DNA of 20,000 nt from an uncultured virus (IMG/VR IMGVR_UViG_3300013004_000028) (Duplodnaviria; Heunggongvirae; Uroviricota; Caudoviricetes): IMG/VR virus record IMGVR_UViG_3300013004_000028. One strand, 5' to 3'. Under the pieces are notes generated by a model. It saw only the letters and a program-made list of their open reading frames with translations. It searched no databases and was not told the origin of the DNA. Positions 1 through 18,624 of this stretch are shown here, in pieces. Every line of letters begins with the position of its first letter. Within the stretch, counting starts at the first letter, position 1. A program made the position numbers and the translations under genes.

Positions 1-3000
1 TACACTTCTTTCTTGTCTAAGCTGTACGTTTTTCGCTTTTTCAGCTTCAAAACTTTTATAATCTTGTGTTTGAGTTACCGCAGCTGATCTTCTTAATATA
101 TCAGCTTGTTCTGACCCTCTACCAGTTAATGATTTTGCAGTTATATTAGCTGTCGAGCTTGCATAATTAGGCATAGCGGCGGAGCTAGGATTCATTGATG
201 TGTTAGTTGCTGCAACACCACTACTAGGAACAGTTGTAACACCAGCTCCAGCTACGCTAGGAACCGTTGGAACACTGGCTCCAGCTACGCTAGGAACAGT
301 TGTAACGCCAGCTCCAGCTACGCTAGGAACCGTTGGAACACCAGCTCCAGCTACGTTAGGAACCACTGGGAATCCAGCTCCAGCTGCGCCTGCACTCGCA
401 GCTATTGGAACATTTGCTCCGGCTGAAGCTGCCATTTGGTTATTATTAGCAAAAATGCTATTTACTCCACCAACTCCTTTTATTTCTCTAGCAAAACTTT
501 GAACAGTAGAATCTTGAAAATAAGGATTATTAAATTTTTCATCTAACATTCTTTTAGATTCATCTGCTCCTGATCCTCCTATCTGTATACCTTCTGTAAT
601 TTTTTTTATAGATGCATCGGAAAAAATACTACCTTGATTAGATTTTGCTCTAGCCTTATTTAAATCCCTCAATTTTTGGCCTATATCATCTGCCATAGTT
701 TTTTGCAACTGTGCTTTCCCGGATCTTTCCTCGTTAGTTCTTTTAACTACATTATCTTTGCCGTATCTTTCAGCTTGAGCTTGTTCATCTTCATATTTAA
801 TTCTATCATTCTGCATCTCTAAATTTGATGCTTCGACTAATAATTTTCTTCCTGTTTCAGTCTCTCCTCCGCCTGATCTTTCAGCTTTATCTCTTAATTT
901 TTGTATTTTAGCATCTGTCTCTAATACTGCCCCAGTATTCATAAGTTTTTTAGTATATTGAGGGGGACCAGCTAAAGCACTTTTACCTATCTCAGCTAAA
1001 TTCCTTCTTTGAGATTCTTTTAACTGGTCTTGAGATATTGTATTTATAGATCTTAAGCCATCGGCTTGATCTATTCTTAATTTTTCTATACCTAGTACAA
1101 CTTCTTGATTTATATCAGCTATTTGGGATAAGATTTCTTTTGAGCCATCTGATGATCCTAAACTTTGCTTTATAAGACCTTCTAAAGATGAAAGATCTCC
1201 CCCTCCTTTTAATACAGAACTAGCTTGATTAAGAATATTTGATCTTTGTTCTATAGAAGCATTTTTTGGAATTAATGCTGTAAGCTGCTCCACTGCTTTA
1301 GAAACTATTTCAGTGCCTTTCTTTTCAGCATCTAAATTTAAGTCTTTTGTTTGAAGACTAGCTTGTCTATTTATACCCTCAGCTTCAGTAATTCTTCCCG
1401 ATGCTCTATCCGAGTCTAGTCTGCTTTTTTCTATTGATAAATTAGTTCCCGCTGTTGAAAAATTCTTATAGTTTATCAATGCTGTATCTAAAGTTAAACC
1501 TTTCAATCCTTCATCAAAAACTTTTTGGAAGTCTAAGCTAAACCCTTGTATTCCTGTTTGCACAGTGTCATTCAGATTTTTATTAAAAGTCAAAAGCGCA
1601 GCTGCATATTTATCCATACTTTGTATAGAGCTATCTGTGAATTCTTTATTTAAATCTCCATAAGTTTTACTCGCCATTTTTACTTGAGACTCAGTTAGTC
1701 CTAACTCTGAACCGAATTGAGTTATAAAATCTCCCATACTTAAAGTCCCATTCCCCAATTTATCTATAGCCTCTGAAGCTTCTTTGGATTTAACTTTAGT
1801 AAAATCTATACTATCAATAATAGGATTTAAAAATGTGTCAAAATCTTCTGTTTTGAAATCTGAAGTTTTAGTTTTGTTGCCAAAAACACTAACATTTTCT
1901 TCTCTAGATTTCTTTATTATCTCAGAAGTAACCAAATTCCCTTGACTAAAATTCAGATCTTTACTCTTCTTTTCTTGAAAATTTGCTATAGCTTCTTGTT
2001 TTTTTAAATCACTTTTTTCATTTAATATCGTAGAAATTAATTCCGGATCTTTAATCCCTCCTAATGATTTAGCAAATGTGGATTGAGCTTTAGCTATCTT
2101 TTTTGGATCTCCTCCTGAAGTTTTTAATTCAGAAATTTCATTTTGAGATTTAATAGCTTCTTGCAAAGAAGTAATTTGAGATTCAGTGGATTGAATTAAT
2201 TTTTGGTTGTTATTAGTCAATTCCAATGTAGATGGAACAGCAGCTTTAGTAGCTTTAGTGGCATAATTAAAAGCCCCTGCGAGAACCCCTACAATAGGGG
2301 CAATAGGAGCTAGAGCCGGAACCATAGCTACCATCATTGCGGCTGAAGCTCCAGCTGCGATAGATTCTCCTATATTCTGAACCTCCTTTTGAGCCTTTGT
2401 TTGCTCTTTTCCTTCCTCCGGCGTTGAAAACATCCCAGTTACAGTAGAAGCAGTAAAGGCTAATCCCATCATTTTTGCATTGATAGCTCCAGCTTTTGCT
2501 GCTCTTTTCTCTTTTTTCTCTTGTTTGAGTTCTTGCGGAGTTTTTGTTACTTTATTATCTGAATCGGGTAGATCTCCGCCCATAGGCATTCCTCCTCCCG
2601 CAGGCATTGCTCCTTGTTTCCCCCCCCCTTGTTGACCTCCTCCTTGCAAAATTCCACCTTTCTGGTTCGCGTTTAGTTCTTTTTGTTTAGCAAAATCAGC
2701 TTTGTATTCTTTTCTTATTGAACGTGATTCATTGTTTACGCTTCGTAATCTATTAGCTTTAGCTTTTCTTGCATCTTTTTCTACTTGAAATCTGTTCTCT
2801 ATTTGAGTTCTTGGAAAACTTTGCATCCCTTTTCCTGCCCCTTGTATACCTTTCGTAGGTAAAATCGGAGATCCAAGCTTACCTCCGGGAGTCATAATCC
2901 CAGCTGCCACTGATCTATTGTAAAGTCTATCAGCTCTGATAGAGTCTGCTTTTCTATTCCTTTCTTCTGATCCTACAATTTGACCATCTCTATTTCTGAA

Positions 3001-6000
3001 CAATTTGCTTTGCCCTTGTCCTCCTTTTTTAAATGTATTTTCAACACCTTTCGCTCCTACTCTTCTTTTATTAATTCTATCTTGAGTAAGATTTTTTAAT
3101 ATCTCTTTTCTACTTACAAACTGGTTCTGTGCTGTAAGAGTCGGCTGATATCTCCCCGGAGCTTGAGGTAGTTTAGCCATCTGCGCTTTAGCATTAGTGT
3201 AGTCAATTTTTATATTTCTCCTTTTTCTATCAGCATTAGCTTTAGCATCTCTTTTAGCTTGATCTTGAGGGGAAATGCCTGCTTTTTTGATAGGCGCAGC
3301 ATTTGTGCGAGAAGCTTTTTTTTCGGCTTCAGCAGCTTTTCTTTTAGCTTGGTTTCTTTGAAAAATTTCTCTTGTAGCTTGAAAAGATCCTCCTAAACCT
3401 GATCTTAGACTACTGGGCAAAGCAGGTCTAGCTCTTACGGCTGCTACTTTTTGTTGAGCAGCTTGAGTTTTATCTTTTTTTTCCTGATCCTTGTCTGCAT
3501 TCTTTTGTTTTGCTTCATTTCTTTTCCTTATTTTCTTTAAAGCTCTTTTCTCTTTGGGAGTCGCAAAATTAGGAATGAAACCTTCAGAAGAGGAATTAGG
3601 ATTTTCTCTTGAAAAGCGAGAGCTTAAATAATCATCCACAGTTGGCACTATAACGCTCAAAGCTGTTCTGAGAGAAGGTAGATTGGCTCTTTGGACTGAT
3701 GTTAATAGATTTCCTGTACTATATTGAACTTGATCTAAAACTTTTTTAAAAAATTCTATTTCATCAGAAGAAATGTCGGGAGCTCCATCTATTTGAGATA
3801 TAAGAAGTGATAAAGCATTTGTAGAAGTAGGAGTATTTAGCATACTTCTAATTTTTAAAGCCAATGGACTATTAGCCGCAGTTTTTACTTTAGAGGCTCC
3901 TTGTCTTACCCTGTTCATTAATGAGGGTCTACGAACAGGAATTTCAAAATTAGGAATAAAACCAAAAGCTGAAGTTCTGCTTACCAATCCGCTTGAACTA
4001 TCTCCATAAGTTCTTTTTGTTGTAGGCTCTATTTTCGCCATTTTGGCGAAACTCATCCCCTTGGATAAAGTCTTTTCGTCCTTGTTAAAAACTGCAAGAC
4101 CTTTTGGGTTAGATTTTGTTTTTAAACTAGCTCTTCTCCCAATCTTAACATCTTTTCTTTCAAAACCCGCACTCATTTCCGCGTTTACGGATTCATTTAA
4201 AGCTTTTCTTTCTTGTGCATAAGGAATTTTTGCAGGGGAAAGCCGAGAAAAGAAATTAGGAATAAAGCCTTTTGCAAAAGAAGTCGGTTTACCTCTCAAT
4301 CCTAATCCTTGAATACTATATCCTCTACCTCTTTTTTTATTTGGATTTTTAGAACCCCTTATATCGTCACTTTTTTCGTCAAATCTTTTCGATAGGGGAA
4401 TTAAATTTCCGTCATCATCATACTCTACTAAAGCAGCTGATTTGATTTGTGAGGCATTCGGAACAACTAGCTCAGAAGACATAGTTTTTTCTTGAAGTGT
4501 TCTTCCTGCTATTCCCCTTATTGAGTCATAGGGTATTTTACCCTCCTTCATTAAAATAGCTGTACCTATTTTGTATTTTTCATTTTTTGCACTTCTTGAT
4601 CTTAAAGTGGAAAGAAGCAATGAACGATTACTAATTTTAGCTATTTCTTCAGGACTTAAGTGGCCGTATTTGCCGAGTTTAGCGTAAGCATCATTGATAG
4701 CTATCTCATAATTGACTCTAGCATTTAAATAAGGCATAAACTCATCAGGCAAATTTCCCGTTAAAGGTTTTTGAGCTTTTACATATACTTCGTCTTTCCT
4801 AAATTGAACATCACTAGCTTTTAATCCTAATGCTTTGAGTCTGTCTTCATGTGGTTTTGAATTTACAGATACATCTGACCCACCAATAGATAAAGAAGCA
4901 TCTTCAGCAGTATAATATCCCGGACCAAAATTTAGATCTTTAATCTCTGAACGCAACGGAACCCCTTTATTATAAAAACCTAATCTAACCCCTTTTCTAT
5001 TGTATGGGGAATCTTGAGCTTCTTTTTCAACCATCTTCTTCAAAAGATCTGTATTATTTTTCTCTACAGCTTCTTTATACATTTTATCTTTTTCTGAAGA
5101 GAAATCAAAAGCTGGAGTTTTACTTATTTTAGCTAAACTAGATTCAACTTTTTCTCTTCCGTATTTTGCAATTAAGAAGTCATAAGTTTTTCTATCTATA
5201 TTTCTGGCAAGATTCTTTCCAGATTTTTTATTTCCAACAACGTCTCTAAAAAATGTTTTGTCGGAAGCAAGAGAAGGAGTTGCGAAATTAGGAATAAAAC
5301 CTCTTGAATTAGTTTTTTTGCTATACTCATTAACTTGATTTTTTAAATTTGGATCAATTACATTTGTATATCCGGCATCTATAATAGTAGCTTTACCTCC
5401 AGATTTAACAAACTTGTCGTATAAATCCTGACTTGATTCAGGTACTTTATAGTACTTAACATAGTCCTTAAGCAAATTATTTTTATTTTCTTCAATAAAT
5501 TTTCGACCTTGAGGATTTAAAGTATAATTGGCCCCATGAAGGTCATCCATTTCCAACCCAGCTTTTTTTAATCGGGCTTGCAAAATACGCCCGAAAACTC
5601 CAGAAGCCGCTATACCAACAGAGTCACGAGCCATTGGTTCTTTAATGATCTCTTTCCGAATGCTTTTAGCTCGCAATGCTCTTTCTAAATTATCTGGAAT
5701 TTTAGGTCCTGTAATTCCGTCAACTAGTCTTTTTTCAGCTAATAATTTTGATACTGTAAACTCATCTGTTATTGTTTTTGGTAAATTAGATTCAGATTTG
5801 ACGTTTGCTGTTTTTGTGTCTTTTTTTGTTTCAAATCCTGCAAAAATTCCAGCTGACGAAGAGGGTTTTCTATTATAAAATCTTTTTACCCCTATATCCT
5901 TAGTTAATCTATGAAATGTTCCTTCTGCTCCGCCACCCATAAAAGAAGATTGGAGTGCAAAATTAGGAATAAATCCTTCAGAAGCGGACATACCTTTAGA

Positions 6001-9000
6001 TCTGGGATCTATACCTTCTTTTTTAGCTAAACCCATTCCATTAGCTAAAGTTCCTTCATACTTATTATAAGTGCCAAAACCTTCTGGATTAAAAGGAGTT
6101 CTTAAAGAAGGGTTTTTACCCATTCTTATTTTTCCGATAGGTATTCCAGCTTTAGCTTCTTTGGCTCTAGATTTCTTTTTGGCATTTTGAGTTTCTTTAT
6201 AAGAAAGTTTTGAAGCAAAATTAGGAATAAAACCACTTGATAAAAAACGCTCTAAACCATTTTCTCTTAGCACTTGTTCTCTAGTCTTTTTTCTTCCTCC
6301 AGTGTTTCTCGGTTTATTATATCTTGCGGACAGAATAGCTTGAACCCGATCTTCATCAGATAAAGGAGCTATTTCACTAACAGGCATATTTCTATCCTGT
6401 ACATCAGTTGGTAATTGTCTTTCTGTTAGTATCTGTTGCTGAATTTTCTTATAACTGTTTGTAGTTTTCCTTGCTCTACTTCCTTGTCCTGCTAAATTAG
6501 CCGCCCATTCTTGAACTTTCCTTTCATCATCGGATAGAGGACCTGTTTCTATAGCAGGCATATCACTGTCCGGTACACTCATCCTTTCAGGATAGGCATT
6601 CATTGTCATTCCAACTTCTTTACCCATGTTAGGTAGATCCCTCGCCCTAGTGGAGCCCTGAAAACGTAACTTTGGAATAACTATTTTAGGAACAATTCTT
6701 TTACCATTTACTATCTGTGTTAGAGGTCCGGCATTAGTTTGTCTACGAGTTATTGGATCAATATCATTTAAATCAGGGACAGCTATATAATTGGTTAATT
6801 TTATTCTGTCGTATTTATCTGGAACGCCTTCTGTAAAAAGGGGTAAAAGCATTGGACTTAACTCAGCTATATTTTCAGGAAGAAATCTCCCATATTTATC
6901 TCCAACTTTGGGAGCTGTCCAATCTCCAGCTTTAGCTTCAAGTAAAGAGATTTCTTTATTTTCTATAGAATCTATTGAGAATGCATCGACTGCGTTATTG
7001 CCTTTATTAAATCCGGTGTTTCTAGTCGGAATAAATTTAGGGCCTACTTTTGTTTTATTGGCTTGCTGTATAGCGTATCTTTCAAAAACTCCAGTATAAT
7101 CAGTTTGATCTACTTTGCCATCTTTTCTATTTTTATCTTTAAAGCGATAAGAATCTGGAGCAGATTGCAAAATTGAAGACATTAAATTTCTTCTTGAGCC
7201 CCCTTTATCAGGAATCTTAACTTGAACTTGTTCAAAAGAAATTGTACTAATTTTATCATCAAACTCAACATTTTTATTGCCTCTAGACTGAGCTAAAGCA
7301 AATTGATTCGCAGCATTTACATTATTAGGTAAAAATTGTGATATATCTATATAATCATCAGATTCATCAATTTTACTATTTAAATTAACATTCTTTTTAC
7401 TCTTCGACTTAGGATTATTTATTGGTTCATCAATTATATCATCGACATAATCATCTGTTTGCAGAGCCTTGTACATCCTAGTCGCTCTATCTAATATTCT
7501 ACTTCCAGAATCAGATTCTTGTATTCTCTTTCTTTGTTTCCTAAGCGCTCGTATTTCGTCGGCTTGTTCTGGAGGGGTTATATTTTTTCCAACTGTATAT
7601 ATTTTTGGTGGAAGCTCTCCTAGCCGTCTATTTATTTTATCAATTGCTTTATTCTTTTTTAGAGAAGTTCTTCCCATTGTTTTATCAATAAATGCGGTCC
7701 TATTTTGTATTTGAGGTAAATTAGCTATTAAAAGATCTTCTGACCCTCCCGCAGCTAATCTCCTAATTCCTTTTGTATCTCCTTCTCCAATTGCTTTTCT
7801 TAATTCAGTTCCACTTATACCCTCAGTCCTAGCGTCCTGCACCACTTGTAATCCCTTTTCTGTATATTTTGCGGTTTCATAGAGTCCCTTATCGTCACCT
7901 ACTAATGCAATACTTCCGGGAGTAGGGCTTAGATATCTTCCGTCTGACACTTTAAAAACAGAAGGTATTCTACCTCTGAATTCGGAAGACGGAATAACTG
8001 TTGTTTTGGCTCCAGTCGCTTTTTTTATTAATTGTCTTCTAAGACCTATAGGAAAAACTGAGGTACGATAAGAATGTTTATCGCCTTCCTTAAGTGTAGC
8101 TCCAGAACTAACTCCGAATACTATATTCTCTGGTTCGAAACCTAACGAACGAGCTTGTGTAAACATTTCCTTATGCCCTTCCGTAAATGGGGCAAAAGCT
8201 CCATATGCGAATGCAATTTTCTTCTTTTCAATATTAAGTTGTTTTTTAATTATAGATGTTTTATCACCTTCTCTTTGCAATCTTGCGACAGGAACACCTT
8301 TATTTTCAGCCACTGCGGCTATATAATTAGGGTCTTCAGGATTTTTTCCTACAGTTTCTAGTAATGATTTCCCAGATCTACCTTGATTTGCTATTGGGTT
8401 ATCACTAGCTGCTCTTTTTTTAGCAGACTTTATTTGATCTTCTCTGGATATTTGTAGAGAAATTAGCCTATCTACTCCTCCGAAAAGTCCTTCTTGTAAA
8501 CTCCTTTCAGCATTTGACTGGGAAGCTTTTGTAGCTACGACTTCATCAACTTTGTCAATGTCTGACTCTTGTAGAATTGGTATTCGAGTCGTTTTTCTAA
8601 ATTTACTATCATCGCTCTTTTTTGGTATGCCATATTTGTCTGCATTAAATGCAAGAGAAGTTTTTCCTGACCCCGGAGCACCATAAATTCCAGTAATTCT
8701 TTTTAAACCTCCGGTTTTTCTTTTTTGCATAGCATAATTACCTAAATGCTCCCAATACTCATGCGTTTTTGAGTTGCCAAGTCTTTCCATTTCTGAATTA
8801 ACTATCTGTGCGTATTCAGGATTAGCTAAAACATCGCCATCTAATATACCAACTCTTCTAGTAATTTCTGCAAAATTCGGAATAAAGCCTTTGCTTGAAA
8901 AGTAAGAAGGAAGAGCCGCCGTAGAATTTTCTTGTCTTTTAATTAATGTGTATGGCTTTTCAAAAGATATAGGTTCTTTGATTTTATTTTTGAAAAATGG

Positions 9001-12000
9001 AAACTTTGATCTTTTATCTGTTTTTGGCAATTCTAAAGCTTTGGTTTGTAAAGCTTTTGAAACCAAATTATCTCTAGTTATTTCTCCCGCTTTAACTTCT
9101 GCTATCCCCTGCCTCTTTGAATTGATTATGTCCATTCTTGCACCTTTACCAGTTGCTAATACAGATGCTTCTTTATTTATTTCATTAAACGCTCTTTGTC
9201 CTGTTTTCTCAAACATATTCCCACCTACTTTAATAGCGAATCCATTTATTTGATTTTCGATAGAATCATTCTTTTCGCCTTCTATTAAAGGCATAGATGA
9301 GTCTTTAACTTCACCACGATTTCTTAAATTATCAATTAATAATTTTACCCCATCTTCAGTATATCCATTTTTTAGGCCTATATTAGTTATAAATTTTGCT
9401 TTATCTTCTGTAAATTCTCCTGCAAGTTTTTTCTTTATGCCTTTGATATAATCCGGAGTATTTAATGATACAACATTATATTTTAAATTTTTTATAGTAT
9501 CAACACCAACATCTGCAACACGAGAAGATTGTTCTCCTGAAATTTTACCTGAATATTCGATTGATTGTAATTGTCCATCATCATTTTTATTATATTTACT
9601 TATATCCTTTTTTTTAATTTTTCCTATTCCTTTTCCCCTCTCCAAAGAGGCTTTTGCGAAATTTGGAATAAAGCCTTTGCTAAATGATCTACGTTTATAT
9701 TCGTTAATTTTTTCCTTTGCTTCTTTGCTTCTTGCTTCTGCCATGCCAGCGTCCACAATAACAGCTTTGCCTCCAGCCTTTACGAAATCTTCATAAAGTT
9801 GGTTATCTGAGTCATATGATGCTCCCGCTCTACGCGAAGACAAATAATCTAAATGTTTTTTTAAGAAATCTTGACCTTTGGCGTTTACACTGTAATTTTC
9901 GCCAATTAGATCGCTCATAAGTACGCCAGAATCGTACATCTTACCCTCTAATATTTTTCCAAAGCCATTCGATGCATCCCTTCCAATTGACTTAATAGCC
10001 ATTGGATCTTTTATTATTTCTTTTCTAATACTGCTTGTTCTTACGGATCTATCTAATGTGTCTGGAATTTGAGGTCCTGTAACCCCCGGAATAAGGTTGC
10101 CTTCCGATAAAAGTCTGGATATCGAATATTCCCTTGTGACTTTATCTTGTATTTCTCTTCTACTTTGGTTTTTGTAAAATCTTTTTACGCCCACACCTTC
10201 TGAGAGTTTATGAAAAGAACCTTCTACTCCTCTTCCAATCTCCCTAGAGGTTTTTACGAAATTTGGAATAAAGCCACTTGAACGTAATACCCCATTCGAA
10301 GACACTTTAAATTGTTCTTGTTCATAAGGGTTTATACCAGTTTTTTTAATAGACTCTTCTTTATGTTTTTTACCCCCTTTTGAATTTGGAGGTGGATTAA
10401 TAAAATATTTTTTCTTAGATTCTGGTACAAAACCTTTGGAATTATTTGATGGTATTTTACTTGCTGTTTCAGCAGTATTCATGACCCCACCCACAGGAGA
10501 ATTAACAACAAGTCCCGAAGCATAACTGGAACTTAAAGCTCCTTTTTTTTCTGCCATTTTTACTTCAGGAGAAAAGCCATTAGAATAAGTCGGGATATAA
10601 CCTTTTGCTTTATTTTTTCCTCTTTTATTAGCTGCTAATCCTACTGTAACAGCTTCACTTACCTGAGCTATACCTTGTCTTCTAGCCATACTCATCATTA
10701 ATTCTTCTAAAATCTGTGTTTTCTCTACTAAACTTGTAGTTGTCGCTAATCTATCTACTAAGCCTTTATTGCCCATCAATATAGCTTTATTAACTGACAG
10801 TTGCATTTTTTCATCAACTAGAGAAGCTTTTTTCAAACCGGATAAAGCCTGAACTGCTGTAAAAGCATCTTTCGAAATTTTAAATAATAATCTACCAATA
10901 ATACCTATTAATAAGTATGCCCCCGGCCCAGCTAATGCAGAACTTATACCATTAAGTATAACTTTGCCTATTGAAAGTCCTGCCTTTTCACCTCCATCCG
11001 CTGCTGCCCCCAAATTAAGAGTGTCTAATATTTTATTGCCAATACCCACAAAACTATCTAAAATAGGTTGTACAGTTACTTTTCCTGTTTCTGCTAAAAA
11101 TTGAGTAAGATTATTCTTTAATTTTTGCAAATTAGCATCTGTAGTCTCTGTTAAGATTTTTAATCTTTCAGCTGCGTTTCCAGAAGAATCAGAAGCTACT
11201 CTAACAGCTTTATCAAATAAACTATACTCTCCATTTAAAGACTTTAATGTTGCTTGAAGAGTATTGATTTGATATACTCCGGCTACTTGTTCAAGAACGA
11301 ATGCCCTTTGACTATCTGATAAACTGTCTAATTTATTAGATAAATTCGTAAGGACTTCAATTTGTGATTTAAATTCTCCATTAGAATTTTCAGTAGCTAT
11401 GCCTATATTATTTAATACCTCTTGAACTGATGTTCTAGAAAGTCTAGTAAAAATTGTTTTTAAGCCGTTGGATATAACTGGAGCTCCCCGAGCAGAAACC
11501 TGTTGAACTACAGATATCAAAGATGCAATTTCTTTTAGTTCTATACCAGCTGCACTAGCTACGCTACCAACTCTTTTTAAACCGTCAGATATTCCAGCTG
11601 CACTAATTGCGAATGCATTGTCAAGAGAAACAATACTATCTACAACATCTTCATAAGTTAAAGCTTCATCGGTGAAAGTATTTATAGCAGCTGTTAAATT
11701 CTCAACAGTTTGAGCCGCATCGGTTCCAGCAATTTTAGAAAAAGCAAGAGCGGCATTTGTAGCCTTCAATGTCTCTTCTACTGACAAACCCTGCCTAGCA
11801 AATTCAGAGGCAGCTGCGGCGGCCACATCGAAACTCTGGCCTGTAGCATTAGCAACCTTAAAAAGCTCTGATGAAAATATCTGTAAATTAGAATTAGATG
11901 TTTGTAATATAGCTTGAATTCCAGCTAATTGCTTTTCAAGTTTTACAGAGTCTGTGAAAAGTCTTGTAAATGCTGTGGCTAATCCATAAACGACTGTGGT

Positions 12001-12219
12001 TGTAGCTGTAAAAGCTAAAACTCTAGCGGTAGCAGCATCTAAACTGCCTGAAAACTTATCGAAATCACCTGTAATTCTGCCAAGGGGCAAACTTCCACCT
12101 TTTAAATTTAGATTAAAACCTTTCTTTTCAAACAGATCTCTACCTTTTTTATGGGTAGTCAGAATAGCTGCATCTGCTTTATCTGTATATATTTGTAATC
12201 CGTAATTAATTTCGTCCAT
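1..12219 (-). CDS. Giant phage tail tape-measure protein with internal effector cassette array (3' end outside window, at least 4073 aa)
   Basis: ATG at 12219 (MDEINYGLQIYTDKADAA...). I found no in-frame stop down to base 1, which explains its absence from the ORF track. The N-terminus reads like a TP901/PhageMin_Tail-type core (SLDAATARVLAF...LFKVANATGQSFDVAAAAASEFARQGLSVEETLKATNAAL...ARGAPVISNGLKTIFTRL). It lies downstream of the tail tube and chaperone genes. The C-terminal part has hydrophobic helices and coiled coil. Confidence 0.93.
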   Translation of the reverse strand, partial: MDEINYGLQIYTDKADAAILTTHKKGRDLFEKKGFNLNLKGGSLPLGRITGDFDKFSGSLDAATARVLAFTATTTVVYGLATAFTRLFTDSVKLEKQLAGIQAILQTSNSNLQIFSSELFKVANATGQSFDVAAAAASEFARQGLSVEETLKATNAALAFSKIAGTDAAQTVENLTAAINTFTDEALTYEDVVDSIVSLDNAFAISAAGISDGLKRVGSVASAAGIELKEIASLISVVQQVSARGAPVISNGLKTIFTRLSRTSVQEVLNNIGIATENSNGEFKSQIEVLTNLSNKLDSLSDSQRAFVLEQVAGVYQINTLQATLKSLNGEYSLFDKAVRVASDSSGNAAERLKILTETTDANLQKLKNNLTQFLAETGKVTVQPILDSFVGIGNKILDTLNLGAAADGGEKAGLSIGKVILNGISSALAGPGAYLLIGIIGRLLFKISKDAFTAVQALSGLKKASLVDEKMQLSVNKAILMGNKGLVDRLATTTSLVEKTQILEELMMSMARRQGIAQVSEAVTVGLAANKRGKNKAKGYIPTYSNGFSPEVKMAEKKGALSSSYASGLVVNSPVGGVMNTAETASKIPSNNSKGFVPESKKKYFINPPPNSKGGKKHKEESIKKTGINPYEQEQFKVSSNGVLRSSGFIPNFVKTSREIGRGVEGSFHKLSEGVGVKRFYKNQSRREIQDKVTREYSISRLLSEGNLIPGVTGPQIPDTLDRSVRTSSIRKEIIKDPMAIKSIGRDASNGFGKILEGKMYDSGVLMSDLIGENYSVNAKGQDFLKKHLDYLSSRRAGASYDSDNQLYEDFVKAGGKAVIVDAGMAEARSKEAKEKINEYKRRSFSKGFIPNFAKASLERGKGIGKIKKKDISKYNKNDDGQLQSIEYSGKISGEQSSRVADVGVDTIKNLKYNVVSLNTPDYIKGIKKKLAGEFTEDKAKFITNIGLKNGYTEDGVKLLIDNLRNRGEVKDSSMPLIEGEKNDSIENQINGFAIKVGGNMFEKTGQRAFNEINKEASVLATGKGARMDIINSKRQGIAEVKAGEITRDNLVSKALQTKALELPKTDKRSKFPFFKNKIKEPISFEKPYTLIKRQENSTAALPSYFSSKGFIPNFAEITRRVGILDGDVLANPEYAQIVNSEMERLGNSKTHEYWEHLGNYAMQKRKTGGLKRITGIYGAPGSGKTSLAFNADKYGIPKKSDDSKFRKTTRIPILQESDIDKVDEVVATKASQSNAERSLQEGLFGGVDRLISLQISREDQIKSAKKRAASDNPIANQGRSGKSLLETVGKNPEDPNYIAAVAENKGVPVARLQREGDKTSIIKKQLNIEKKKIAFAYGAFAPFTEGHKEMFTQARSLGFEPENIVFGVSSGATLKEGDKHSYRTSVFPIGLRRQLIKKATGAKTTVIPSSEFRGRIPSVFKVSDGRYLSPTPGSIALVGDDKGLYETAKYTEKGLQVVQDARTEGISGTELRKAIGEGDTKGIRRLAAGGSEDLLIANLPQIQNRTAFIDKTMGRTSLKKNKAIDKINRRLGELPPKIYTVGKNITPPEQADEIRALRKQRKRIQESDSGSRILDRATRMYKALQTDDYVDDIIDEPINNPKSKSKKNVNLNSKIDESDDYIDISQFLPNNVNAANQFALAQSRGNKNVEFDDKISTISFEQVQVKIPDKGGSRRNLMSSILQSAPDSYRFKDKNRKDGKVDQTDYTGVFERYAIQQANKTKVGPKFIPTRNTGFNKGNNAVDAFSIDSIENKEISLLEAKAGDWTAPKVGDKYGRFLPENIAELSPMLLPLFTEGVPDKYDRIKLTNYIAVPDLNDIDPITRRQTNAGPLTQIVNGKRIVPKIVIPKLRFQGSTRARDLPNMGKEVGMTMNAYPERMSVPDSDMPAIETGPLSDDERKVQEWAANLAGQGSRARKTTNSYKKIQQQILTERQLPTDVQDRNMPVSEIAPLSDEDRVQAILSARYNKPRNTGGRKKTREQVLRENGLERFLSSGFIPNFASKLSYKETQNAKKKSRAKEAKAGIPIGKIRMGKNPSLRTPFNPEGFGTYNKYEGTLANGMGLAKKEGIDPRSKGMSASEGFIPNFALQSSFMGGGAEGTFHRLTKDIGVKRFYNRKPSSSAGIFAGFETKKDTKTANVKSESNLPKTITDEFTVSKLLAEKRLVDGITGPKIPDNLERALRAKSIRKEIIKEPMARDSVGIAASGVFGRILQARLKKAGLEMDDLHGANYTLNPQGRKFIEENKNNLLKDYVKYYKVPESSQDLYDKFVKSGGKATIIDAGYTNVIDPNLKNQVNEYSKKTNSRGFIPNFATPSLASDKTFFRDVVGNKKSGKNLARNIDRKTYDFLIAKYGREKVESSLAKISKTPAFDFSSEKDKMYKEAVEKNNTDLLKKMVEKEAQDSPYNRKGVRLGFYNKGVPLRSEIKDLNFGPGYYTAEDASLSIGGSDVSVNSKPHEDRLKALGLKASDVQFRKDEVYVKAQKPLTGNLPDEFMPYLNARVNYEIAINDAYAKLGKYGHLSPEEIAKISNRSLLLSTLRSRSAKNEKYKIGTAILMKEGKIPYDSIRGIAGRTLQEKTMSSELVVPNASQIKSAALVEYDDDGNLIPLSKRFDEKSDDIRGSKNPNKKRGRGYSIQGLGLRGKPTSFAKGFIPNFFSRLSPAKIPYAQERKALNESVNAEMSAGFERKDVKIGRRASLKTKSNPKGLAVFNKDEKTLSKGMSFAKMAKIEPTTKRTYGDSSSGLVSRTSAFGFIPNFEIPVRRPSLMNRVRQGASKVKTAANSPLALKIRSMLNTPTSTNALSLLISQIDGAPDISSDEIEFFKKVLDQVQYSTGNLLTSVQRANLPSLRTALSVIVPTVDDYLSSRFSRENPNSSSEGFIPNFATPKEKRALKKIRKRNEAKQKNADKDQEKKDKTQAAQQKVAAVRARPALPSSLRSGLGGSFQATREIFQRNQAKRKAAEAEKKASRTNAAPIKKAGISPQDQAKRDAKANADRKRRNIKIDYTNAKAQMAKLPQAPGRYQPTLTAQNQFVSRKEILKNLTQDRINKRRVGAKGVENTFKKGGQGQSKLFRNRDGQIVGSEERNRKADSIRADRLYNRSVAAGIMTPGGKLGSPILPTKGIQGAGKGMQSFPRTQIENRFQVEKDARKAKANRLRSVNNESRSIRKEYKADFAKQKELNANQKGGILQGGGQQGGGKQGAMPAGGGMPMGGDLPDSDNKVTKTPQELKQEKKEKRAAKAGAINAKMMGLAFTASTVTGMFSTPEEGKEQTKAQKEVQNIGESIAAGASAAMMVAMVPALAPIAPIVGVLAGAFNYATKATKAAVPSTLELTNNNQKLIQSTESQITSLQEAIKSQNEISELKTSGGDPKKIAKAQSTFAKSLGGIKDPELISTILNEKSDLKKQEAIANFQEKKSKDLNFSQGNLVTSEIIKKSREENVSVFGNKTKTSDFKTEDFDTFLNPIIDSIDFTKVKSKEASEAIDKLGNGTLSMGDFITQFGSELGLTESQVKMASKTYGDLNKEFTDSSIQSMDKYAAALLTFNKNLNDTVQTGIQGFSLDFQKVFDEGLKGLTLDTALINYKNFSTAGTNLSIEKSRLDSDRASGRITEAEGINRQASLQTKDLNLDAEKKGTEIVSKAVEQLTALIPKNASIEQRSNILNQASSVLKGGGDLSSLEGLIKQSLGSSDGSKEILSQIADINQEVVLGIEKLRIDQADGLRSINTISQDQLKESQRRNLAEIGKSALAGPPQYTKKLMNTGAVLETDAKIQKLRDKAERSGGGETETGRKLLVEASNLEMQNDRIKYEDEQAQAERYGKDNVVKRTNEERSGKAQLQKTMADDIGQKLRDLNKARAKSNQGSIFSDASIKKITEGIQIGGSGADESKRMLDEKFNNPYFQDSTVQSFAREIKGVGGVNSIFANNNQMAASAGANVPIAASAGAAGAGFPVVPNVAGAGVPTVPSVAGAGVTTVPSVAGASVPTVPSVAGAGVTTVPSSGVAATNTSMNPSSAAMPNYASSTANITAKSLTGRGSEQADILRRSAAVTQTQDYKSFEAEKAKNVQLRQERSV
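224..388 (-). repeat. 33-bp tandem repeat, five copies, encoding VAGAGV(T/P)TVPS
   Basis: Units start at 224, 257, 290, 323 and 356 (ctaggaacagttgtaacaccagctccagctacg and variants). The first four alternate between two variants. Confidence 0.93.
3964..4251 (-). repeat. ~80-95-aa repeated unit of unknown function, copy B
   Basis: AEMSAGFERKDVKIGRRASLKTKSNPKGLAVFNKDEKTLSKGMSFAK aligns with copy A (shared SLxTxxNPxGxxxxNKxExTLxxGMxxAK). Confidence 0.8.
4270..5283 (-). other. ADP-ribosyltransferase domain, ART-PolyVal-like (cassette in tape measure)
   Basis: YKEAVEKNNTDLLKKMVEKEA..KGVRLG, NFGPGYYTAED, EVYVKAQKPL, YDSIRG and SELVVPNASQIKSAALVEYDDDGNLIPLSKRFDEKSDDIR match, from memory, the motif series and C-terminal QIKSA..YDDxGNxIPLSxRF..DIR signature of ART domains in polyvalent proteins. 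Confidence 0.78.
5302..5958 (-). other. Protein-kinase-like domain 2 (paralogue of domain 1)
   Basis: MGGGAEGTFHRL, IGVKRFY, DEFTVSKLL, MDDLHGANYTLN (D 5542-5544) and IIDAGY (D 5377-5379). It is collinear with domain 1 (GITGPKIPDNLERALRAKSIRKEIIKEPMA vs GVTGPQIPDTLDRSVRTSSIRKEIIKDPMA). Confidence 0.82.
5977..6216 (-). repeat. ~80-aa repeated unit of unknown function, copy A
   Basis: EAKAGIPIGKIRMGKNPSLRTPFNPEGFGTYNKYEGTLANGMGLAK aligns with copy B at 3964-4251. Confidence 0.8.
6780..7150 (-). other. PD-(D/E)xK nuclease-like domain 2 (in tape measure)
   Basis: YTGVFERYA (7081-7092), NNAVDAF (D 6985-6987) and ISLLEAKAGDW (E 6937-6939, K 6931-6933). It shares the GxxFE/GxFE ... D ... ExKAG pattern with domain 1. 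Confidence 0.62.
7700..8225 (-). other. HIGH-class nucleotidyltransferase (cytidylyl/NMN-adenylyltransferase-like) domain (cassette in tape measure)
   Basis: KIAFAYGAFAPFTEGHKEMF has the GxFxPx(T/H)xGH motif (8173-8202). FPIGLRRQLIKK, IALVGDDK and RTEGISGTELRKAIGEGD (the ISxTxxR motif, ~7790-7830) follow in the expected order. Confidence 0.82.
8260..8871 (-). other. P-loop NTPase/nucleotide-kinase-like domain (cassette in tape measure)
   Basis: Hydrophobic strand plus Walker A, ITGIYGAPGSGKTSLA (8659-8682). Later RLISLQISREDQIKSAKKRAASD resembles the lid region of nucleotide kinases. Confidence 0.66.
8890..9657 (-). other. PD-(D/E)xK nuclease-like domain 1 (cassette in tape measure)
   Basis: GGNMFEK (E 9208-9210), ARMDII (D 9130-9132) and IAEVKAG (9091-9099) give the E...D...ExK order and spacing of the restriction-endonuclease fold. 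Confidence 0.62.
9676..10257 (-). other. Protein-kinase-like domain 1 (cassette in tape measure)
   Basis: IGRGVEGSFH Gly-rich loop (10219-10236), GVK lysine (10183-10185), alphaC-like REYSISRLL, catalytic loop SDLIGENY (D 9910-9912), and DFG-like IVDAGMA (D 9751-9753), in canonical order. Confidence 0.78.
10700..12219 (-). other. Tape-measure core domain (N-terminal part of the giant CDS)
   Basis: Ala-rich helical repeats (EFARQGLSVEETLKATNAAL, AISAAGISDGLKRVGSVASAAGIELKEIASLI, EQVAGVYQINTL) followed by a hydrophobic segment GISSALAGPGAYLLIGIIGRLLF (~10880-10950). Confidence 0.88.
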
Positions 12220-17988: not shown

Positions 17989-18624
17989 TTAACCGTATAT
18001 TCTTGGATGATCAAAATTTGTTATAGAAACTTGTGTTAAAGTTCTGCCTTGAGCCAAATCCTTAGATAGTTGAAGGCCCCTATTATAAAATTTTAAATTA
18101 TTAGAGCTAACAAGATATGGGGCAAACCCTTTTGACAAAGATATTATTTGATCATCTGTTAATGCTCCGCTCCAAATTGCTGCTTCTGCTATTCTACCAT
18201 TGAAAAAAAATCCTCTTGATGTGCTCCATCTAGAACCTAACATAATATTATTAATTCCAACTGGATTTGAACTAGTTGTATTAGTAGCTTTTCCTCCTCC
18301 ATTTAAAAAAATAGATCTACCAGTTATACTTGTACAAACAGCTGCTGCATGATGCCATGTATTTGCTGTATATCCAATTGTGCTAGTAGCTGTTCTGTCT
18401 ACAGCTCCTACTAAAGAACTTATAGCTATAAAATCTCCTGCTAGATCTCCTCTGTTTACCATTTGAAATCTATCAACTCCATTAGCTACTCCAAGAGACA
18501 TTAAAGTTCCTCCAGCAGTAACATTAGCAGGATTAAACCAGCAAGCCATTGTAAATGGAAAAGTGGTAACTGGGGTAGATGTTGATTCTATATAAGAACT
18601 TGTACCATTTAAAGATAATGCCAT
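17989..18624 (-). CDS. LamG / concanavalin-A-like lectin domain virion protein (211 aa)
   Basis: ALSLNGTSSYI, FPFTMACWFNP, NTWHHAAAV, IFLNG and FFNGRIAEAAIWSGALTDDQI form the typical Laminin_G_3 motif series. Confidence 0.88.
   Translation of the reverse strand: MALSLNGTSSYIESTSTPVTTFPFTMACWFNPANVTAGGTLMSLGVANGVDRFQMVNRGDLAGDFIAISSLVGAVDRTATSTIGYTANTWHHAAAVCTSITGRSIFLNGGGKATNTTSSNPVGINNIMLGSRWSTSRGFFFNGRIAEAAIWSGALTDDQIISLSKGFAPYLVSSNNLKFYNRGLQLSKDLAQGRTLTQVSITNFDHPRIYG

Follow-up and report, generated by a model that had tools for sequence, protein, structure and literature searches.

A GFIPNF-type motif at the junctions of exchangeable cargo modules in a tape measure protein from an uncultured tailed phage of lake water

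The window, a stretch of 20,000 nucleotides of phage DNA, contains on its minus strand (1..12219) the first 4,073 codons of a large open reading frame (ORF), identified from the ORF listing and its translation, which continues past the low end of the window. The full-length protein of 5,095 amino acids, of which the window covers the first 4,073, was rebuilt from L002 and L174, both exact matches to the window. The protein matched PF10145 (PhageMin_Tail) at residues 123 to 314 with 106.1 bits at a curated cutoff of 33.2, and TIGR01760 at residues 91 to 402 with 130.2 bits at a cutoff of 28.8. Ten PHROGs for tape measure proteins (TMPs) also matched the window ORF. Judged by its sequence, the ORF encodes a TP901-type TMP, and the tailed phage to which it belongs is an uncultured one from lake water. 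Among the 12 neighbouring ORFs, the recognisable ones were limited to a Laminin_G_3 protein and a match to the PHROG "virion structural protein", and no families of the tail tube, the chaperone, or the baseplate were found in these 12.

The TMP is composed of three parts, all encoded on the minus strand, as are all features given below. The conserved N-terminal TP901-type domain (about residues 1 to 540, assigned as 1 to 539; 10603..12219) comprises the Pfam, PHROG, and TIGR01760 matches plus a hydrophobic segment at residues 428 to 446, and is 70% to 75% identical in the relatives P0003 to P0011. It is followed by an array of eight cargo modules and by a C-terminal part of about 2,200 residues (2886 to 5095), which starts in the window at 1..3564, possesses no copies of the motif described here, and has a hydrophobic stretch at residues 3286 to 3318. 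This C-terminal part may be the length-determining "ruler" of the protein. The cargo array consists of eight separately folding modules, partly enzyme-like, with a GFIPNF-type motif at every junction.

Exact GFIPNF occurred nine times, always in the one minus-strand frame of the TMP. The first copy, at residue 649 (10258..10275), closes the conserved N-terminal part. The next seven are at residues 849 (9658..9675), 1111 (8872..8889), 1996 (6217..6234), 2082 (5959..5976), 2307 (5284..5301), 2651 (4252..4269), and 2753 (3946..3963), and the ninth at residue 2880 (3565..3582) is the last junction ahead of the C-terminal part. From the composition of the 5,095-residue TMP, 5.8e-5 exact copies would be expected by chance. 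A serine or alanine residue was present at position −2 in all nine copies and an alanine directly after the motif in six of them. The observations of a first-pass annotation of this DNA were all reproduced. The two degenerate copies upstream, which that annotation had also reported, were read from the translation as GYIPTY at residue 540 (10585..10602) and GFVPES at residue 596 (10417..10434); at the site of residue 540, more distant relatives, P0012 among them, carry a canonical GFIPNF. A further stretch, QFLPNN at residue 1628 (7321..7338), lies inside module M5 and is kept as FLPNN in L183. It is possibly a decayed copy, since the domain following it is a separate, motif-fenced module in P0003, P0004, and other relatives. 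The distances between copies were irregular, 86 to 885 residues in the window TMP and 8 to 2,170 residues across the family. Residues 2886 to 5095 of the TMP were free of GFIPNF, and so were all other frames of the 31,486 bp assembled around its gene.

The modules between these copies differ in size and probable function. M3 (residues 655 to 848; 9676..10257) and M7 (2088 to 2306; 5302..5958) are paralogues with 39% identity. The AlphaFold2 model of M7 (pLDDT 75.8, pTM 0.74) retrieved PRPK/Bud32, WbdD, Rio2, APH, and PknB as best Foldseek hits, and all of the top 10 were kinase-like with E values of 3e-4 to 1e-3 and probabilities of 0.99 to 1.0, albeit at modest TM scores of 0.37 to 0.48. Matches of M7 to PDB profiles were weak (E 0.07 to 3), mostly to Ser/Thr kinases, and collinear. 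G14, G16, K31, E72, D145, N150, D200, and G202 were invariant in all nine aligned sequences, and we read them as the glycine-rich loop, the β3 lysine, the αC glutamate, the catalytic D..N, and the magnesium-binding D.G. Together, the predicted structure and these residues assign M7, and through M7 also M3, to the bilobal protein-kinase-like fold. M5 (1117 to 1995; 6235..8871) contains a cytidylyltransferase-like stretch (CTP_transf_like, 22.6 bits at a Pfam cutoff of 21), a putative P-loop string, and a conserved domain at about residues 1633 to 1817. In this domain E94, D126, and E142-x-K144 were invariant in all four sequences. The P-loop and this nuclease-like E...D...ExK pattern were read by eye and had no support from the PDB profile search, and neither this search nor Pfam yielded a nuclease match for the domain as a possible member of the PD-(D/E)xK nucleases.

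M6 (2002 to 2081; 5977..6216) and M9 (2657 to 2752; 3964..4251) are small "type-B" modules and paralogues of each other. The small module of about 85 residues starts and ends with the motif and was counted 129 times in 83 of 120 family proteins. M6 is 90.6% identical to a module of P0011, compared to 69% for the N-terminal domains of the same pair. The remaining three are M4 (855 to 1110; 8890..9657), which had no family match in Pfam, NCBIfam, or PHROGs, M8 (2313 to 2650; 4270..5283), and M10 (2759 to 2879; 3583..3945), fenced by copies 8 and 9. For M8 there was a weak lead to ART-PolyVal (protein-atlas score 0.87) and no match in Pfam, PDB, NCBIfam, or PHROGs. The first-pass annotation had proposed that the motif releases "each enzyme". 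This agrees with the two kinase-like modules and the one cytidylyltransferase-like stretch, while the other modules have no fold assignment.

Across 120 relatives, the motif is a linear element of nine residues, [AS]-x-G-[FY]-[IV]-P-N-[FL]-A. In 539 instances from these 120 proteins, the information content was high from −2 to +6 and dropped to background one residue beyond, a profile resembling that of the protease sites in viral polyproteins. The residue after the motif was small (A in 64%, S in 10%, and G in 2% of these instances). At the first junction, compared without any motif filter, G, P, and N were each retained in 107 of 108 relatives. Up to 24 copies were present in one chain (P0013), and a single member of the 120, P0099, possessed none, which indicates that the motif is tied to the cargo array and not to the TMP as such. 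The literature search found no paper containing the motif string.

The coding DNA was less uniform than the peptide. In the nine window copies, glycine was encoded by GGC (four), GGT (four), or GGA (one), proline by CCT (six), CCA (two), or CCG (one), and the last phenylalanine by TTT (five) or TTC (four), with ATT for isoleucine and AAT for asparagine throughout. In viral contigs, 190 motif instances were encoded by 77 distinct 18-mers, in which all synonymous codons occurred. So many different 18-mers for one peptide indicate selection on the peptide, as the first-pass annotation had concluded from synonymous codons in the nine copies, and the retention of G, P, and N agrees with this. The same annotation had noted copies identical over 17 to 19 bp; its 19-nt string indeed has two exact occurrences, one from 9657 and the other from 10257. 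The copies at 6217 and 3946 had 20 nt in common in register, and the median exact run in register was 11 nt over all 36 pairs of copies.

To locate the borders of exchange, the alignment segments of BLAST comparisons (HSPs) were related to the motif positions. In the cargo region, 67 of 92 HSP starts and 66 of 90 HSP ends were within 15 residues of a motif. Random placement of the motifs gave a mean of about 10 starts or ends near a motif, and the observed value was reached in 2 of 2,000 trials. Of the HSPs covering the N-terminal domain, 83 of 119 ended at residues 649 to 669, around copy 1. L183 lacks M4 precisely from motif to motif; at this indel the DNA parentage switches inside the motif, within the shared string GGCTTTATTCC.AATTT.GCA, and L183 is collinear with the window again from copy 6 on. 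The clustering of the HSP ends and this switch support the module-exchange junction that had been offered as one of the readings of the motif, and the homology breakpoints among related tape measures coincide with motif positions. The position of the copies at module borders is shown by both internal paralogy and the comparison with relatives. The same peptide joins unrelated neighbouring modules, for instance directly in M3|M4|M5. A total of 488 modules fell into 187 clusters, including 137 singletons, and 117 proteins displayed 90 distinct architectures. The motif, as these sequence comparisons show, is where modules are gained, lost, swapped, or put into another order in related phages, and it is very probably a junction of swappable modules. 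Similar arrangements are found in polymorphic toxins, where a short peptide (VENN in CdiA, DPxGL in Rhs proteins) marks the border between the constant part and the swappable modules, its coding DNA provides homology for cassette replacement, and the Rhs motif doubles as a cleavage site. However, these are bacterial toxins with a single variable C-terminal domain, whereas here a phage virion protein carries many copies of the motif.

DNA micro-homology between copies is a plausible mechanism of the exchange; selection for in-frame, functional junctions would produce an identical picture. Among the contigs of four lake metagenomes, those of other organisms matched the phage only over 20 to 26 nt at motif sites, indicating that such micro-homologies exist between co-occurring phages. 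These matches, the runs of up to 20 nt in the window copies, and the M4 parentage switch inside the shared string would all suit copies kept solely for recombination, with the peptide merely tolerated as a flexible spacer. This explanation is improbable, because the DNA itself is not conserved, as the 77 18-mers and the short median run in the window demonstrate, and because the peptide is near-invariant even between proteins with N-terminal domains of only 33% to 40% identity, where a spacer would drift. Even less probable is a structural role as the first or last strand of each domain, or of an ancestral 85-residue repeat, kept for folding. The commonest module is bounded by the motif, it was found in 92 of the 120 proteins when searched by HMM, and library-wide the protein clusters that contain it number at least 1,072. 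On the other hand, the small module is missing from 28 of 120 motif-bearing proteins, the motif directly joins large unrelated modules, conservation is at background one residue beyond it, and in both models discussed below it is predicted outside the confident core and without secondary structure.

A docking or packing function deserves more weight than these two, although it is still rather unlikely. Without being cut, the peptide may bind a tail component such as the lumen of the tube, a chaperone acting in assembly, or the other two TMP chains of the trimer, which would keep the three chains in register and the bulky modules assembly-competent. Near-invariant G, P, and N residues with aromatic neighbours would suit a fixed bound conformation, the motif is situated in predicted non-regular segments free to bind, and it is confined to the TMP within the 31.5 kb examined; moreover, TMPs are trimers with weak contacts in the lumen (PMC10038345). 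The irregular spacing of the copies is at odds with periodic contacts to the tube rings, and no partner for binding was found. Processing of the TMP at the motif is our best explanation of its biochemical role, as a candidate put forward tentatively.

Processing of TMPs is known from other phages. In T5, the TMP pb2 is cut after R1127, which splits off an enzyme-like part during tail morphogenesis while both parts remain in the tail (Linares et al. 2023, PMC10038345), and the processing of lambda gpH to gpH* is cited in the same paper. The T5 site, ...NSFVPR|AEGG, has F-V-P and the following alanine in common with GF[IV]PNF-A, a weak likeness of three residues plus alanine at the sequence level, and it lacks the G, the N, and the second F. 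There is one site near the C terminus of pb2, in contrast to nine candidate sites in the N-proximal and middle regions of the window TMP. Neither T5 pb2 nor lambda gpH was matched by an HMM built from 129 small modules with flanking motifs, the best domain scoring −0.5 bits. The phage-related Prp protease cuts with high specificity between an aromatic residue and an alanine, acting on the motif MLxx(D/N)LQ(F/L)F'A(S/H)KK of L27 and the phage 80alpha capsid (PMC9405229). In the Prp motif S or K follows, and several window copies read NF-ASK or NF-AK. The upstream residues differ, Prp is known from Firmicutes, and no member of the Prp family was encoded by the 12 neighbouring ORFs; the comparison is an analogy only.

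Giant proteins with a similar cargo have been described as well. In Thermus phage P23-45, the TMP is fused to the virion RNA polymerase in gp96 (Chaban et al. 2024, PMC10770324). With about 5,000 residues gp96 is another giant TMP, and like the protein described here it has a folded enzyme in its N-terminal region, thought to enter the host via the tail. Its single cargo is an RNA polymerase instead of kinase-like and nucleotidyltransferase-like modules, and the part of that paper available to us contains no repeated junction peptide, module shuffling, or proteolysis. In phages and conjugative elements, polyvalent proteins are giant chains of unrelated enzyme domains with extensive domain shuffling, for which delivery together with the DNA and processing into units have been proposed (Iyer et al. 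2017, PMC5512222). Several unrelated catalytic domains are predicted here too, in the two kinase-like modules and the CTP_transf_like stretch, and the relatives P0056 and P0063 carry ART-PolyVal (PF18760) according to precomputed domain annotation. In contrast, the processing of polyvalent proteins is ascribed to an embedded metallopeptidase, which was not detected in the window TMP. The term "tape measure" is absent from PMC5512222, and a standard junction peptide does not appear in the available part of it.

Residues 1 to 7 and 223 to 231 of the M7 model, which belong to the motifs, had pLDDT values below 50 around a folded core of residues 10 to 220, and in the M6 model both motifs (16 to 21 and 102 to 107), which are internal to the construct, were also below 50. 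The motif is thus predicted to lie outside the folded cores in both AlphaFold2 models, with low pLDDT near construct ends or in columns of thin alignments being a weak sign of disorder. The first-pass annotation had suggested looking for GFIPNF in other virion proteins and for a protease; neither turned up in the 31,486 bp or the 12 flanking ORFs, respectively. Protease families were also not found by Pfam, NCBIfam, or PHROGs in the whole TMP or in each module, searches that divergent domains could escape.

If the motif is a processing site, it would be recognised by a specific protease, either of the phage or the host, which would cut the TMP at or beside N-F|A. Cutting at all sites would sever the N-terminal domain from the C-terminal part, which would be tolerable only once assembly is complete; the proposed timing is on ejection, or after the uncut chain has done its part in building the tail. 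With the outermost motifs lying between the array and the N-terminal domain on one side and the C-terminal part on the other, cuts at the first and the last motif would release the cargo and leave both TMP parts at full length. The kinase-like, nucleotidyltransferase-like, and other modules may then reach the host as individual proteins before the DNA does. With a common peptide and a similar coding string of 18 to 24 nt at the module ends, any in-frame recombinant of two copies would remain processable, which would explain the rapid shuffling of cargo modules among these phages.

Every copy of the junction peptide GFIPNF in the window is carried by a single minus-strand ORF (window 1-12219), which is open at its low end. 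The nine exact copies described in the first-pass annotation are present at the same coordinates (aa 649-2880), against an expectation of 5.8e-5 copies from composition, and so are the degenerate forms GYIPTY and GFVPES upstream of them. Other details of that description stand as well: a serine or alanine is positioned two residues ahead of the motif in all nine copies and an alanine directly after it in six of nine, the Gly, Pro, and Phe codons vary synonymously between the copies, and copies 9658 and 10258 have a 19-nt string in common. Residues 2886-5095 of the protein contain no motif copy, and neither do the other frames in 31.5 kb of sequence around the gene.

A 170-kb viral contig contains the whole window without a difference, and the full length of the gene product, 5,095 aa, was obtained by joining two overlapping loci of this contig; the same gene is located on a 124-kb and a 71-kb contig, with 100% identity over two queried stretches. 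Since the first 500 residues match PhageMin_Tail (PF10145; 106 bits, cutoff 33.2), TIGR01760 (130 bits, cutoff 28.8), and ten tape-measure PHROGs, the protein is a tape measure protein (TMP) of the TP901 type. Its C-terminal part includes about four tandem copies of the peptide VP(T/S)VAGAGV(P/T)T (window 220-369, minus strand; aa 3951-4000). Upstream of the TMP gene, a 211-aa ORF (window 17989-18624, minus strand) matches Laminin_G_3, a concanavalin-A-like lectin/glucanase family, with an E value of 3e-18 and also a “virion structural protein” PHROG; the remaining neighbors, seven upstream and four downstream ORFs, gave no family match. All sampled words of the phage DNA are contained in 24 lake-water metagenome runs. 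In cultured phages, the DNA of the module array had no match, module M6 had none by tblastn at E values up to 1, and the N-terminal domain found only TMPs of about 25% identity, from Bacillus, Lactococcus, and Mycobacterium phages. By these comparisons there is no close cultured phage, the best tblastn identity being about 25% and confined to the Pfam domain.

With TMP residues 1-640 as the query, 235 relatives were found, of which the 120 among the matches listed were 2,244 to 6,843 aa long. At least one copy of the pattern G[FY..][IV..]P.[FY..] was present in 119 of these 120 listed relatives, and two or more copies in 117 of them. The logo over 539 instances reads [AS]-x-G-[FY]-[IV]-P-N-[FL]-A and falls to background information at positions -4 and +7. 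This logo selects on the motif itself, and the residues at the first junction of 108 N-terminal domain alignments were therefore read as a control: G, P, and N were each found in 107 alignments, F or Y in 96, I or V in 103, while the final motif position was F in 95. At least 168 stretches with the GFIPNFA pattern were found in viral contigs. Among the matches listed, 190 instances were encoded by 77 different 18-mers that between them include each synonymous codon, and chance matches in closed frames accounted for 6 of the 190. Judged from this codon diversity, conservation acts on the peptide and not on the DNA, as had been proposed from the copies in the window. The largest array among the relatives compared, in the 5,251-aa protein P0013, has 24 motif copies in one chain. 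Two short ORF calls, P0198 and P0218, start 3 to 6 residues ahead of the motif and could be split forms or fragments.

The motifs divide aa 649-2885 into eight modules, M3 to M10, which include two pairs of paralogs, M3/M7 with 39% and M6/M9 with 40% identity. M3 (window 9676-10257, minus strand) and M7 (window 5302-5958, minus strand) are protein-kinase-like minimal domains of about 200 aa. Their fold, modeled on M7, gave PRPK/Bud32, WbdD, Rio2, APH, and PknB as the top Foldseek matches, with E values of 3e-4 to 1e-2, their profile matches to Ser/Thr kinases were weak and collinear, and the residues of catalytic type, G14, G16, K31, E72, D145, N150, D200, and G202, are all invariant; the protein atlas assigned M7 to no named family. 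The presence of two kinase-like copies within a virion TMP suggests that a kinase is delivered together with the DNA. M5 (window 6235-8871, minus strand; 885 aa) contains three elements that no motif separates: a cytidylyltransferase-like stretch with HxGH (22.6 bits, Pfam cutoff 21), a P-loop string GAPGSGKT that was read by eye, and a conserved domain marked by the pattern E...D...ExK. This last domain had no support in PDB or Pfam, a PDB profile search returning no nuclease, and it forms a separate motif-fenced module in closer relatives. The peptide QFLPNN (window 7321-7338, minus strand) directly precedes this nuclease-pattern domain, and the same FLPNN is found in L183, a metagenome locus encoding a related TMP; two modules may have fused here, leaving it as a decayed junction motif. 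For M8, the only lead came from the protein atlas and pointed to ART-PolyVal (score 0.87), and PDB sequences gave no match. M4 and M10 had no matches in Pfam, NCBIfam, or PHROGs.

M6 and M9 represent a small module, designated type-B, with a helix, hairpin, helix core. Its fold had no match in the PDB by Foldseek (best E value 1.6), in the BFVD viral structure library (0.89), or by a wide VIA-align comparison (best Z score 3.6). It is nevertheless the commonest module of the family: among the matches listed, clustering assigned 129 modules in 83 of 120 relatives to this type, and an HMM detected it in 92 of 120. In a library of 1.84 billion proteins clustered at 50% identity, 1,072 clusters matched at E values up to 1e-3 and 764 at up to 1e-10, and 108 of the 146 newly returned best matches were proteins of at least 2,000 aa. 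Viral contigs searched with M6 yielded only the phage itself and one relative with 33% identity. An obligate coupling of the small module to the motif was ruled out, because 28 of 120 motif-bearing proteins among the matches listed do not have it. A 483-aa protein, P0124, consists of three tandem small modules joined by ...DIPNLAKRE...[IL]PHF[AT]K instead of GFIPNFA, meaning that the core IPN[LF]A is retained in a diverged setting, apparently one not of TMP size.

When the 120 listed relatives were cut at their motifs, 488 modules resulted, which formed 187 clusters including 137 singletons, and the 117 listed proteins with two or more motifs displayed 90 different architectures. The positions at which homology begins and ends were mapped by BLAST of the TMP against 119 relatives, and these edges cluster at the motifs, as a role of the peptide as module-exchange junction had implied. 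The N-terminal domain alignments ended at residues 649-669 in 83 of 119 cases; within the array, 67 of 92 HSP starts and 66 of 90 ends were located no more than 15 aa from a motif. Nine randomly placed sites gave a mean of about 10, and the observed value was reached in 2 of 2000 trials; since the same small module accounts for many of the HSPs, they do not count as independent. Two relatives with an N-terminal domain 70-75% identical to that of the TMP, P0003 and P0005, are without M3, and in both the first motif leads straight into an M4-like module. In another, P0011, an M7-like module precedes the M6-like one, which is the reverse of the order in this TMP, and this M6-like module is 90.6% identical to M6, compared to 69% for the N-terminal domain.

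A metagenome scan with a single protein query found nothing; repeated with an alignment as query, it returned six loci. One of them, L183, is collinear with the TMP, at 64-71% identity, except in two places. An unrelated 200-aa module replaces M6 and M7, with homology resuming at the motif at aa 2307, and M4 is absent exactly from motif to motif, so that in ...YKRRSFSKGFIPNFAK followed directly by TNRTVGIIDGDVL... the end of M3 is joined to the start of M5. Of the 36 nt ahead of this motif in L183, 28 positions match the copy at aa 849 and 11 the copy at aa 1111; of the 36 nt after it, 27 match copy 1111 and 17 match copy 849. This indicates a switch within the shared motif string, and the proposed exchange junction is thereby supported at the DNA level. 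These sequence comparisons show a linear motif, conserved as a peptide, at each junction and the modules behaving as independent evolutionary units with exchange points at the motif, and the evolutionary role of the motif as a junction is well supported.

Within the window, in-register exact runs between motif copies are 5 to 20 nt long, with a median of 11. The contigs of four lake-water metagenome runs (X1, X3, X7, and X12) were compared with window 3000-10800. In each run, one contig spans this region with no differences and no gaps; the phage recurs in runs released from 2018 to 2024, and the 7.8-kb cargo array is identical in four. Contigs of other organisms in the four runs match over just 20-26 nt where a motif is located, for instance at 3946-3970, 4252-4277, 5956-5979, and 6210-6234, so that micro-homologies exist between co-occurring phages. 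The “joints” listed were traced to such short matches, made by other contigs where motifs are located, and not to deletion forms of the phage. No deletion forms of the phage were seen in contigs of the four runs, and contigs drop rare variants; the comparison shows that the full array is present, not that variants are absent.

The readings considered for the function of the peptide are processing, docking, recombination, and structure. That the motif is a processing site is a serious possibility, if somewhat short of an even chance, and is favored from sequence because the motif is as long and as invariant as a specific protease site, the residue after it is small, the linked domains have no reason to stay tethered, and TMP cleavage has precedents. 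In the text of PMC10038345 available, T5 pb2 is described as cut after R1127, with both parts remaining in the tail; its site, SFVPR/AEGG with the slash at the cut, bears a thin resemblance to GF[IV]PNF-A. No protease family was found in the TMP or its 12 neighboring ORFs. A docking or packing motif is the rather less probable reading. That the motif-flanked unit is homologous to lambda gpH or T5 pb2 was first suspected by eye from ATGGYV in gpH and AAGGYVPNF in the related protein P0076, but it found no support in the module HMM, which detects neither.

A pure recombination linker, in which the coding string would matter and not the peptide, is improbable in view of the codon diversity, which contradicts it. 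That the motif is a structural end-piece of the modules is highly improbable: large modules join directly at the motif, and the structure models speak against it. The AlphaFold2 model of M7, from a nine-sequence alignment, reached a pLDDT of 75.8 and a pTM of 0.74 with a confident core at residues 10-220, and both terminal motifs had pLDDT values below 50 and were without secondary structure. In the model of M6, built with 15 extra residues flanking each motif, the core at residues 27-90 had a pLDDT of about 78 and both motifs again remained below 50. These low values are consistent with the abrupt boundaries of the logo and may hint that the motif is located outside the folded cores, with the reservation that low scores are expected in any case at termini and in columns with a thin alignment.

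Following the processing reading further, the TMP may, tentatively, be a tail-lumen polyprotein, an effector “magazine” cut at the motifs, with cassettes traded among co-occurring lake phages. The intact chain would serve first in tail assembly; cuts at each [AS]xGF[IV]PNF/A would then yield about ten proteins stacked in the tube, to be fired into the host ahead of the DNA in a fixed order. The cargo would be kinase-like and nucleotidyltransferase-like, perhaps also ADP-ribosyltransferase-like and nuclease-like. The junction peptide and its 18-24-nt coding string would act as a plug-and-play socket, through which co-occurring lake phages would swap effector cassettes. The junction motifs of polymorphic toxins are a conceptual parallel, and this arrangement would be their phage counterpart, one that occurs in over a thousand protein clusters.

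Both TMPs in which one enzyme is embedded and polyvalent injected proteins are already known. The former include T5 pb2 and P23-45 gp96 (PMC10770324); the latter are described in PMC5512222, a paper from which the term “tape measure” is absent. Full-text searches of the literature found no paper with GFIPNF, GFVPNF, GYIPNF, GYVPNF, FIPNFA, or FVPNFA in a relevant context, and a standard junction peptide fencing a whole array of swappable TMP modules was not found there. The motif-fenced array is real and widespread, and apparently undescribed. If the motif is a processing site, tail maturation would gain a new specific pair of protease and substrate, the passage of folded enzymes through the tail would be explained, and phage-delivered effectors, candidate enzymes of anti-defense or takeover, could be cataloged by a sequence handle. 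A docking role would instead be relevant to the chaperoning of giant TMPs. With processing and docking alike, the motif is a natural junction that is portable and lends itself to swapping domains between virion proteins.
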